Positions 9,425 through 33,653 of a stretch of DNA of 64,000 nt are shown here, piece by piece; position 1 is the first letter of the stretch; each line of letters opens with the position of its first letter. Source of the stretch: Pristiophorus japonicus. Its lineage: Eukaryota. The stretch lies in NCBI RefSeq assembly GCF_044704955.1, contig NC_091980.1:166966001-167030000 (forward strand), written 5' to 3'. The translations under genes and the position numbers were made by a program. A model generated the notes under the pieces. That model made no database searches and was not told the origin of the DNA. It saw only the letters and a list, made by a program, of their open reading frames with translations.

Positions 9425-10240
9425 AGCATCTCACCATTAATACATTGGATATATGCTCACACCTACAATACATTGACCATGCACATGCGCACGCGCACAC
9501 TTACACCTGTCGCACCATCAGTACATTAGACAATTACACATACGCACATCTGTCACACCATCAATACATTCACCATACACACACACACCTGTCACACCAA
9601 TNNNNNNNNNNNNNNNNNNNNNNNNNNNNNNNNNNNNNNNNNNNNNNNNNNNNNNNNNNNNNNNNNNNNNNNNNNNNNNNNNNNNNNNNNNNNNNNNNNN
9701 NNNNNNNNNNNNNNNNNNNNNNNNNNNNNNNNNNNNNNNNNNNNNNNNNNNNNNNNNNNNNNNNNNNNNNNNNNNNNNNNNNNNNNNNNNNNNNNNNNNN
9801 NNNNNNNNNNNNNNNNNNNNNNNNNNNNNNNNNNNNNNNNNNNNNNNNNNNNNNNNNNNNNNNNNNNNNNNNNNNNNNNNNNNNNNNNNNNNNNNNNNNN
9901 NNNNNNNNNNNNNNNNNNNNNNNNNNNNNNNNNNNNNNNNNNNNNNNNNNNNNNNNNNNNNNNNNNNNNNNNNNNNNNNNNNNNNNNNNNNNNNNNNNNN
10001 NNNNNNNNNNNNNNNNNNNNNNNNNNNNNNNNNNNNNNNNNNNNNNNNNNNNNNNNNNNNNNNNNNNNNNNNNNNNNNNNNNNNNNNNNNNNNNNNNNNN
10101 NNNNNNNNNNNNNNNNNNNNNCACACACACCTGTCACACCAATACATTCACCATACACACACACACACACCTGTCACACCAAAACATTCGCCACACACAC
10201 ACACACACCATTAATACATTAGACAAACACATACATCTGT
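9425..10240. repeat. CA-rich minisatellite (~38-bp unit) spanning a 520-N gap (9602-10121)
   Basis: Unit CACCTGTCACACCAATACATTCACCATACACACACA appears on both sides of the N run. Confidence 0.85.
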
Positions 10241-28120: not shown

Positions 28121-29181
28121 GGGCTCAATTACTTGAAGAGTTACGCCCGTTTTTTGGGGGCCCAAGTGCGGCAAAAAAAAAATCTTCCAAGTTTCCCCAT
28201 TTGATTTCTTCATTTTGGCGCGGCCGAGCCTATCGTTTAGTTTTGGGGGTGGAGCCTTGATCTGCTCCAAAAAAATCAAATTGCCACAGTAATCAGGGAC
28301 ACAATGCGGGCTCAGGCTGCAAAGTGAAACATACAGCCAGCTCACAGCAACCTGCACAAGCACATTAAACATTGCAGCAACTTACCAAGCACAAGCACAT
28401 TACAGCAACTTACCTTCTTTAAACGTTTCCCCCACCCACCCCCCGATGCCGGTCCTGATCCCCGCTCCTGTCCCAGGCTGAATGGCCTCCTCCTTCCCGG
28501 TCACCGCACCTATCCCAGGCCGAATGGCCTCTCGATGCCGGCCCCCGCACCTACCCTAGGCTGAATGGCCTCCTCCCGATCCCTGCACCTATCCCAGGCC
28601 CTAGGCCGAATGGTCTGCTCTTGATCCCCGCACCTATCCCAGGCCGAATGGCCATCTCCCGGTCCCTGCATCTACCCTAGGCTGCATAGTCTCCCGGTCC
28701 CCGCACCTATCCCAGGCCGAATGGCCTCCCAATGCCTGTCCCCGCACCTACCCTGGGCTGCATAGTCTCCCAATCCCCACACCTATCCTAGGCCGAATGG
28801 CCTCCTCCTTCCCGGTCACCGCACCTAACTATACCCAAAATGCTTCCCACCCTCTCTCCCACTCTCTCTTACCTCTCCTGCTTCTGTTGCCCGGGCATCT
28901 GCTGTGCTGATTTCCTTAACTCACCAGAAGATTTTTCTACAGAGGCCATATATGCTGGCCTAACAAGAACTGGAGTAGCTCTGAGCTGGCCAAACTTGCC
29001 ACACTTGCCAGAATTGGCCCAGATGGCAGGGTACTTTCACTGAAAAAAAACCTAACCTAAAAAAATGGTAACTAACTGAGTTGGTGCAAATTGATTGGGA
29101 AAACTTGTATTTTTTAACTTAGGCCAAAAAAAGTGGCCTGTGCCAAAAAAACGGCGCAAATCACTGGGAAAAATTGAGCCC
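28121..29181. mobile_element. Non-autonomous Harbinger element (MITE) related to 21740-22965
   Basis: Perfect TIRs GGGCTCAATT / AATTGAGCCC, ATG TSD (28118-28120, 29182-29184), and subterminal similarity to the Myb-bearing relic. Confidence 0.85.
28440..28830. repeat. GC-rich tandem array inside MITE (~33-43-bp units, ~10 copies)
   Basis: CCCGCACCTATCCCAGGCCGAATGGCCTC recurs. Confidence 0.9.
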
Positions 29182-30415: not shown

Positions 30416-30889
30416 CCTTTACTGTACAAGTGTAGCATCAATGTATAAATGCACCCAGAATTGGAGCCCAAATTGGCGCCAGAGTAAAGCGGAGTGAGAC
30501 TCCCTGGAGGAGGGACACTCTTTGTTTCAGAGGCCAAGTTCTGGTTTTAAAAGCATGGATTCAAAACATGTTCAGCGTTGGTGCACAGCTAAAACTGCTT
30601 CACACGGACGCTCAACTTGTGTAAACGCACCCAAAGTTTTAGCAGCAGTTGTAATTCTAATTCTTCTGATCCTGGCTGCATCCATAGACTAAAGAAAAGC
30701 GAAGTCTCGGGGGACTTGTAAGTATTGAAGAAGGCCAACTCATAGTCTTATCATCACTCATACTTCTACCCTCCCAATAAGTTATAAACATAAATTCTGA
30801 CAGTAGACGGATATTATCTTAAATACACAAAATGTAGTGTAAAATAGTAACATCGGCTGTTACTAAATGAATTAAATGATTGATCGATC

Positions 30890-31990
30890 GATTGTTACAT
30901 GTTGTACTGAAAGTCGTGGCTCGAGTCTGTGAGGCCTCCGACACGAGAGGTGTTCTCTTTTTAGTGTGCTGAGCATGGGAGCCCGAGGCTTCACAAGGCC
31001 TGAACTACAATCGGCTGCCATTACCTGAAGTCCTTATGTCCAGGATCCACTCCCGTGTCTAAGACGGTGATGAGAACTCCTCTGCCGTCGTACGCTGAGT
31101 ACCGGGAGAGGAAAGATGCACGCCGGTCTCTTTCTTCAGTAAAAGAGTTATCGAGATGAGCAGCCACGACTCAACTCAGACTAATGTGCAGCTCGAGCTC
31201 CGGCTCAGGTTCGAGCTCCGGCTCAGGTTCTATTTCTCTCCTGTCCAGCAAGCCAGATCGAATGAACTGCTGGGCCGGATATGGCTCGTGGGCCGTATTT
31301 TTCCCACCACTGGGCTCGAAACTCACCCGCTCTTTAATGAGGAAGCTCCCAGAAACGGCAGGGACCCGATGTAACTGGATCTGTGCCAGAGTTACGCCGG
31401 GAGGCTGGCGGTACCCTCGCAGAATTCAGACAACACCTTTCACCCAATTGCATCAGTAAACAAAAGTAGCATTTTATAACTCCCAGGAATGAAAGCGTGA
31501 ATTAGTCGCTAAAGTTCCTTCAGAGACGAGTTGAGGCTAAAAACTCGCTGCAATTTTTTTTTTTAAGTTTGAAGTAAACAATCTTCCAATCGATTCGATT
31601 GTGCCAACTCTGAGTCATGCTGCCAATGGTGTTACTTTATATATTTAAAGTATTTATGTTATCATGCAATTATCTAGAAAGTTTGCAGAGATTTATGGAA
31701 ACTGAACCCACAAACTATGAGTTACTCACCTTTCACGTTGCAGTGACGGAGCAGAAACCGAGGTTTCGAGTGTCTTAACGACATATTGAGGCAGCAAGCA
31801 GCAGATTCAATTTGCTCGCCTCTGTTTGTAGTTTTGACTGCCCTGCTGCCTCGCGACAATGGCCCCCTCCTGGTGTTACGTGGGATGGGCCAACGTTCGG
31901 CCTCGAAGCCAGGCCTTGGCGTGCTGGATTAAATCCAATGGCGGGGCCGTATTTTGCTTGCCACTGATCTAACCCTTGCTGTACATGCGC
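30890..31990 (-). promoter_or_regulatory. CpG-rich promoter-like island around TPP2-like exon
   Basis: Visibly CpG-rich and not a recognisable repeat. CCAAT (31934) lies next to GGCGGGGC (31939). ACTACA motifs at ~31003 (+) and 31827-31832 (-). Three minus-strand splice donors. Confidence 0.45.
31025..31167 (-). pseudogene. TPP2: Tripeptidyl peptidase II exon-1 remnant (non-processed gene fragment)
   Basis: Minus strand encodes [33 protein letters not shown], versus recalled vertebrate TPP2 [40 protein letters not shown]. Ends GGACTTCAG|GTAATG. The start appears to be GTG, and there are several indels. Confidence 0.8.
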
Positions 31991-32510: not shown

Positions 32511-33079
32511 CTGTTATTTAGCCCGTATTGCACTTAATCTGGGAACGCCAGATAGCACAGTATAGAGAGAACTTGAGTGCTTGATGCTGATTGCCTGTAC
32601 TGCTCCGTCCTCCAGCACTTACAGCTTTCTCCTAGTTAGCAGTTCATACAATAAAAATTGTAGAAGCAGCTTACCGTGAGCAGTGACATAGTTTGCAGCA
32701 AATGCCTCTGTTTACTGCCAGCAAGATGTCCCTACCCATTTCCCACAGGAAAACCCAGGGACATTGGATTCATTCCAAAACTCCAGTCACTTGTGCTTGA
32801 ATGCAAGTTATTGAAGAAGCAGTGGTGTGCTGAGAGGTGGCAGGTGCACATTTTATATTACGCTCTGGTTGCTTCTTTCCTGAGGATATTGGCAAATGCC
32901 TTTTCTTTTTGGGCAGTTTTGCATCCATACAAAGACATCCTGCATACCCACAGAATCCCAGCAAACTGTGCAGAGACACAAGGCTGCTCTGATTCACTGA
33001 ACACTGGCTTCTGTTGTTGGGGGAAGGGAAAGAGCTGCCAACATTCCCCTCACAAATATGTCCTGCCTGGCTTCTTGAA

Positions 33080-33395
33080 ACCCTTACCCTGCTGAATAAA
33101 CAGGGACTCTGTACAGTTACACACAGTGAATAATCCTTACCCTGCTGAATAAACAGGAACTCTATACAGTGACACAGTGAATAAGCCTTACCCTGCTGAA
33201 TAAACAGGGACTCTGTACAGTGACAGTGAGTAACCCTTACCCTACTGAGTAAACAGGAACTCTGTACAGTGACACAGTGAGTAACCCTTACCCTGCTGAA
33301 TAAACAGGGACTCTGTACAGTTAGTGAGTAGCCCTTACCCTGCTGAATAAACAGGGACTCTGTACAGTTACAGTGAGTGACCCTTACCCTGCTGA
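33080..33395. repeat. Minisatellite, ~47-54-bp unit, 6 full copies plus a partial
   Basis: CCTTACCCTGCTGAATAAACAGGGACTCTGTACAGT(GACA)nGTGAGTAA. Confidence 0.95.
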
Positions 33396-33653
33396 GCATT
33401 ACATTTCAGTGAGGATCCTTAAGGGCAATAAGTGGGTCCCAAGCCCTGGAAATTCAGCCCTCGAAGCCCAAGCAACTATTTGCTCATATTTTATTTTCTC
33501 ATTTGCCCTAATTAAATATTATACACATGAAAGTTTGGGAAAGCCTGCTTTTAGAGTTTTTGTCTCATTATGGGGCAAATCCTAAATCAGAACACCAAAA
33601 TCTGAAGTGTTAATAACTTCAAATAGATATATGCAATTCTATGGGAACATTGG

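Follow-up and report, generated by a model that had tools for sequence, protein, structure and literature searches.

The remnant of a tripeptidyl peptidase II (TPP2) first exon found in the window, i.e. the whole 64-kb stretch of DNA that was analysed, very probably belongs to a 3'-truncated and decayed copy of a high-copy, non-autonomous hAT element, which carries the start of TPP2 together with the likely promoter and non-coding exon of an OASL-type gene. This copy, on contig C4, is of type B: an outer left end is followed by a segment B of about 500 bp, a fossil target of the TTCTAGCC type, an inner left end and TPP2. The homology unit common to other copies spans window positions 30725-31969, and all of the parts described here lie on the minus strand. 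The left 8-bp flank, GGTTAGAT (31967..31974), fits an nnnTAnnn target; its right-hand partner was lost with the 3' end of the element. The outer hAT left end, comprising the terminal repeat and a subterminal part (31836..31966), is common to a sister element that is devoid of TPP2. The captured 5' region of the OASL-type gene (31335..31835; source G000:C8:218471195-218470467, minus strand) comes next, with a stretch of about 240 bp containing two ISRE-like motifs deleted at 31780/31779. Within it, a likely non-coding OASL exon ends at 31730, with a GT donor at 31729-31728 and intron 1 beyond. The fossil target site (31313..31320) reads TTCGAGCC in the window copy and TTCTAGCC in most copies, and stands before the inner hAT left end (31251..31312), where the original TPP2-carrying element started. 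The captured TPP2 5'UTR (31168..31250), in which an 18-bp tandem duplication at 31193-31230 is private to this copy, leads into the decayed TPP2 coding exon 1 (31025..31167; donor G000:C10:91368999-91368838), whose catalytic-motif Asp codon lies at 31059-31057. A GT donor and the captured start of TPP2 intron 1 (30725..31024) follow, about 70 bp of the latter being absent from the donor gene, and homology ends at 30725. The right terminal repeat, searched for in the window, and the nested MITE of other copies are both absent from this one.

The identity of the remnant, proposed by the sequence-only reading, was borne out. Between 31167 and 31025, KKETG is encoded in one frame and the rest of the TPP2 N-terminus (27 residues) in the next, Drosophila TPP2 being the top PDB match (E 0.0034) and the shark TPP2 protein P0003 matching at E 2.5e-9. 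The Pfam S8 score, 16.7 bits, is below the cut-off of 21.8; exon 1 only is present, and not the full catalytic domain of a multi-exon gene. The retained splice donor is indeed there, as CAG/GT at 31025/31024, and the start of TPP2 intron 1 beside it agrees with the proposed DNA-level copying. When the whole 64-kb window was searched with P0003, the remnant was found and nothing else at E<=1, in accordance with the earlier statement that other TPP2 exons could not be spotted in the 31 kb downstream. The term "orphan", by contrast, does not hold: in a search of the 5.9-Gb genome with 541 bp around the exon, 1123 first-look candidates were returned, and all 40 that were scored match, one of them being the window copy and the others being 74-85% identical to it and spread over many contigs. 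As for a host gene, a Pfam scan of 110 of the 272 non-repeat frames in the window gave zero matches. Two minisatellites flank the region (window 28459-28827 and 33079-33396, with units of about 41 and 50 bp), and positions 9602-10121 of the window are N.

TPP2 and OASL as sources of the cargo

On contig C10, an intact 162-bp coding exon 1 heads a multi-exon TPP2 gene, 82-84% identical to shark TPP2 and without transposon ends; the closest named TPP2 proteins are those of sharks and rays. Copies of the element cover C10:91369064-91368088, none reaching beyond and five stopping at exactly C10:91368088. As read from these alignments, the founder took 977 bp of this gene, made up of 5'UTR, exon 1 and part of intron 1. 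The captured sequence reaches only 65 bp upstream of the ATG, so that the proposal of a captured promoter-plus-exon module stands as regards capture and fails as regards the TPP2 promoter, which is absent. TPP2 had also been taken to be single-copy, which is not the case here: a further TPP2-like gene with several exons, sharing about 60% identity with TPP2, lies at G000:C6:66.15-66.28 Mb (L037-L056). In seven cartilaginous fishes, its matching proteins bear the name "TPP2-like" (in one case plain TPP2); the gene has orthologs across sharks, rays and chimaera, and is probably an ancient paralog; our literature search found no paper on a TPP2 paralog in sharks. This gene has no DNA match to the element and is not the donor.

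The second source was reached through segment B, a search with which gave 105 candidates and one match devoid of any transposon end or TPP2 part, at C8:218471195-218470467, which is repeated nearly identically 100 kb away. Downstream of this sequence follows, on that strand, an OASL-type gene with NTase, OAS1_C and ubiquitin domain exons. The first coding exon of that gene begins at a splice acceptor (near C8:218469070) located 1.8 kb beyond an AAG/GTGAG donor (C8:218470854) inside segment B, and because this acceptor-led coding exon lies downstream of the B donor, segment B is interpreted as a promoter, a non-coding exon 1 and part of an intron 1. In the subfamily of the window copy (about 100 candidates), the second captured piece comprises some 730 bp of a likely OASL promoter and non-coding first exon. 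Since the window copy carries TPP2 and a likely OASL first exon, the element probably collected the starts of two host genes successively. CpG retention, at 58% in the TPP2 donor and 67% in the OASL donor, is in only modest excess over the means of the copies (45 and 42%, respectively), with one copy at 87%, which weighs against the reading adopted here.

The reverse direction, in which the transposon donated the OASL promoter region by exaptation, was also considered. The OASL region differs from the element consensus at 57 of 625 positions (9.1%), about as much as the copies do (median 8.3%), no more than 87 bp of the region is found in other OAS paralogs of the C8 cluster, and a family member sits inside intron 2 of this same OASL gene, all of which would suit a donation. 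However, the OASL homology begins at the very base after the left-end segment, precisely where the sister element also diverges, and such a start exactly at a module junction would rarely be expected from random truncation. The gene-to-transposon direction is favoured on this account. Moreover, no left end, TPP2 sequence or right end is left at the C8 source locus, no other source appeared among the 40 scored of the 105 candidates, and the intron of the TPP2 donor is equally distant from the element (8-9%). We therefore regard exaptation as clearly improbable and retain capture from the gene.

In the source, two motifs that fit an ISRE consensus stand 36 bp apart; 200 kb contained five matches, four of which are this pair and its duplicate, and 0.8 would be expected by shuffling. 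Both exon and ISRE function are read from the sequence, and the motifs may be regarded as candidate interferon-response elements. They lie in the stretch that is deleted from most B copies, including the window copy, at least one motif being kept in 8 of 12 distinct long copies. Spread of interferon-responsive elements by mobile DNA is known of the MER41 type. The shark element would resemble it in bearing interferon-response-like motifs to many sites, but here the motifs seem to have been taken from a host interferon-stimulated gene, and most copies have lost these putative motifs.

Around the source, at least five OAS/OASL genes and a fragment occupy G000:C8:218.42-218.61 Mb (L217-L236), where about 30 kb is duplicated in inverted orientation. 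This OAS cluster includes three family members of the C+E type, one of which is the intron-2 copy in the OASL gene mentioned above. The cluster also contains pieces of a retroviral-like protease, RNase H, integrase and zinc knuckle (G000:C8:218.501-218.504 Mb, L225).

Decay and coding potential

The lesions of the exon in the window are a change of ATG to GTG, a 17-bp deletion and two private 1-bp deletions. With a threshold of 14 missing bases, the 17-bp deletion was scored in 104 of the 120 copies spanning the site, and 14 of the other 16 miss 10-13 bases; it is family-wide, and the founder was therefore already frameshifted. The start site carries ATG in 90 of the 113 copies that cover it and GTG in the window copy alone, so that the GTG at 31167 is a decayed ATG. 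The frame that opens there remains open for 48 codons, the last of which spans the donor and precedes a TAA. Regarding the compensating indels described earlier, the open frame stands, whereas the lesions have different histories, the 17-bp deletion being shared by the family and the 1-bp loss that accompanies it being private; the second private loss shifts the final codons.

Decay of the copies is neutral. Outside CpG sites, they diverge from the consensus by 7.3% at the first codon position, 7.9% at the second and 8.8% at the third, and the window copy itself shows 5, 2 and 5 changes at these positions. For the C10 donor, the corresponding counts against the consensus are 3, 0 and 7 sites.

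That the window copy was recruited, either as a micropeptide or as an exon spliced into some new transcript, had been offered as an option, and a 48-codon open frame with a DTG motif and an intact GT, preceded in the same orientation by an OASL-derived exon and donor, could suggest it. Nevertheless, the ATG is lost, codon positions 1-2 hold 7 of the 12 substitutions, and the ISRE-like stretch is deleted. The open frame requires no selection, because, of 78 copies with a full exon, 11 likewise read through to D[TS]G in the start frame, and the donor GT, kept in 92 of 121 copies, is below the 84% expected under neutral decay. The peptide would also hold one residue only of the subtilase triad, which counts against a function. 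Among predicted proteins, the 48-aa frame found no candidate of comparable length, and a profile built from ten frameshifted copy frames had 0 matches in 1.84 billion representatives. Recruitment thus found no support and appears highly improbable: the open frame of the window copy is due to chance, the copy most likely makes no protein, and the locus is a dead copy of the transposon.

Termini, copy number and subfamilies

The TPP2 element is a non-autonomous hAT DNA transposon with terminal inverted repeats and 8-bp target duplications. Full copies start with the left end CAGTGGTGGGCAA and finish with the right end TTGCCCACCCCTG, which are complementary at 12 of 13 positions, i.e. short terminal inverted repeats, and both were found in 45 loci. 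At these 45 loci, the 8-bp flanks agree on average at 5.76 of 8 positions, compared with 3.41 after shuffling (maximum 4.02 in 2000 shuffles); no rows were dropped, and some were scored from the inner left end by mistake, which lowers the mean. The duplications differ from copy to copy, being perfect in 6 of 45 and agreeing at 6 or more positions in 28 of 45. Of the 45 left flanks, 38 have T at position 4 and 39 have A at position 5, which gives nnnTAnnn.

An 8-bp target of this consensus is described for the Buster family of hAT (PMC3517528), and the likeness to that family consists of the nnnTAnnn duplication and the short terminal repeats (PMC3517528). Unlike it, the shark element encodes no transposase and none was found for it: of 30 hAT-dimerisation (PF05699) loci fetched from 97 matches (752 candidates), none has matching ends. 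The Buster placement is therefore a tentative one, by target pattern.

Regarding abundance, a 34-mer of the right end has 718 matches within 3 mismatches in the genome and an exon 34-mer has 147 (donor gene included), the reversed controls giving 0 in both cases; the copy-number check by DNA search thus indicates a multicopy family with more than 700 right ends. Among 30 perfect right ends sampled, 25 have TPP2 sequence within 1.5 kb (two as a short intron piece only), other repeats break up four more and the remaining one is a sister element, and 192 of the 219 distinct loci examined contain TPP2 sequence. Rough extrapolations, from loci that were best-scoring or motif-selected and not a random sample, put the copies that have the 3' half of the exon at 270-550, those with any part of it at about 750, and the right ends at up to about 1800. 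The sister element (L371:891-1534) has the same ends and a different, GC-rich interior, which is possibly another captured gene start.

The 219 loci differ in their additional cargo, with segment B in 51, insert C in 62, insert D in 50 and insert E in 29; B, C and D are mutually exclusive, and 27 of the 29 E copies are of C type. Insert C (211 bp, L104:1262-1472; 987 candidates) and insert D (about 300 bp, CpG-rich, L186:1275-1560) share a single insertion point in the captured 5'UTR. Insert C carries what we take to be CCAAT, ZNF143-like and IRF-like motifs. Insert E (L137:1881-2024) stands in place of the exon's 3' half, and in several copies it contains an open frame of 48 codons; it had no match in Atlas, and its source was not found. 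Searches for the sources of insert C (30 loci inspected of 40 scored, among 987 candidates), insert D (81 and 103 candidates) and segment F (211 candidates) returned family members only among the loci inspected. A 21-bp minisatellite is expanded at one identical point of the exon in several copies (L183, L359, L367, L102), and at that same point other D copies (L349, L360, L364, L327) have in common an AT-rich sequence, inserted there over about 450 bp. Many copies contain, in their 3' part, a small nested MITE (about 170-190 bp; L238-L250) that has termini and an 8-bp duplication of its own; copies without it show a single 8-bp empty site, and filled sites also exist.

A segmental duplicate or decaying paralog of TPP2, also among the earlier options, would explain a DNA-level copy with an intron and might recall the second TPP2-like gene on C6, but the window is devoid of any other TPP2 exon, the donor homology is limited to 977 bp bounded by transposon sequence, full copies have transposon ends on both sides, and the C6 gene does not match the element, leaving this explanation with a negligible probability; it is refuted by the terminal repeats and the copy number. 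Helitrons have no inverted termini and produce no target duplication. Spread of the fragment by a Helitron or a retro-element, although the bat HelibatN3 amplified a similar 5' fragment to about a thousand copies (PMC4224331), has virtually no chance of being correct and is refuted for full-length copies by their inverted termini and 8-bp target duplications, the retained intron and the nested MITE site, empty or filled, with its own 8-bp duplication also opposing it.

Order of events and known systems

From a mechanistic point of view, we infer an order of events from parts that were observed (terminal inverted repeats, distinct target duplications, both sources, sharp junctions, family-wide frameshift and neutral decay). 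A Buster-type hAT would first have swapped its interior for 977 bp of TPP2, template switching or gap repair being the probable route, and a 17-bp deletion at a short TTTT microhomology would then have destroyed the frame in the founder. Transposase acting in trans would have spread the element, while sublineages shed intron sequence, acquired the nested MITE and took up more cargo (inserts C, D and E). One copy may then have inserted at the TTCTAGCC site, next to OASL sequence behind the left end of the sister element, either into an OASL-carrying sister or beside a sister at the OASL locus, after which the outer left end and the inner right end would have moved together as a composite of about 1.5 kb. 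One sublineage would have lost the ISRE-like stretch, and the window copy would finally have inserted on C4, lost its right end and its ATG, and partly regained a frame by chance.

The TPP2-carrying family is an unusually high-copy form of the known Pack-TIR kind. Indeed, two parental loci without transposon were identified (TPP2 on C10 and OASL on C8), capture was at the DNA level with an intron kept (up to about 745 bp of TPP2 intron 1), and transposition was repeated after capture, as indicated by the copy numbers and the distinct target duplications. The cargo of rice Pack-MULEs is chimeric, as it is in the shark element. Rice Pack-MULEs are also TIR elements with gene fragments and GC-rich 5' regions, but they belong to another superfamily and kingdom and represent many low-copy captures, versus one very-high-copy family in the shark (PMC8277862). 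Four multicopy Pack-TIRs were reported from 100 genomes (Tan et al., 2021; PMC8277862), a vertebrate example being hAT-N8_XT of Xenopus, which carries the 5'UTR of CAPSL. Such vertebrate elements resemble the shark family as non-autonomous hAT elements with a captured gene 5' end, distinct target duplications and a source on another chromosome, whereas the hAT-N8_XT example is on three chromosomes (PMC8277862). The shark element has no fewer than 718 right ends and includes a coding exon as well as a second capture of identified origin. The pipeline of Tan et al. (2021) demanded 90% identity, so that old families like the TPP2 element would escape it, and the word "shark" is absent from the main text of that paper (PMC8277862).

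HelibatN3, which consists of the NUBPL promoter, 5'UTR, exon 1 and intron 1 in bats, is the closest in cargo and scale, yet it is a Helitron (PMC4224331). Together with related bat Helitrons, it shares with the shark element a gene 5' fragment at about a thousand copies, sequential capture and a bias toward gene starts, but it is a rolling-circle element without inverted termini, whereas the shark element is of the cut-and-paste type (PMC4224331). We found no paper on a TPP2-carrying transposon or on a captured tripeptidyl peptidase exon, nor a usable substitution rate for sharks, and the supplements of PMC8277862 might list a related case.

A broader proposal, which we hold to be decidedly doubtful, is that this hAT lineage may be a serial collector of shark gene starts (TPP2, OASL and at least three more promoter- or exon-like cargos), whose long OASL copies would have spread working interferon-response elements, some of which would by now have brought neighbouring genes, or TPP2-antisense or chimeric RNAs, under interferon induction. 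Among the animal Pack-TIRs published so far, nearly all are single-copy, and in vertebrates the capture of gene starts at high copy number has been described for Helitrons; here, a cut-and-paste element made such captures repeatedly, and two donors mapped to the base provide a datable, stepwise record. In such genomes, gene annotation and read mapping will be misled by the hundreds of sequences that resemble TPP2 exon 1. As a second cargo source, the mapped OASL capture offers a direct test of whether DNA transposons redistribute host interferon-response motifs.
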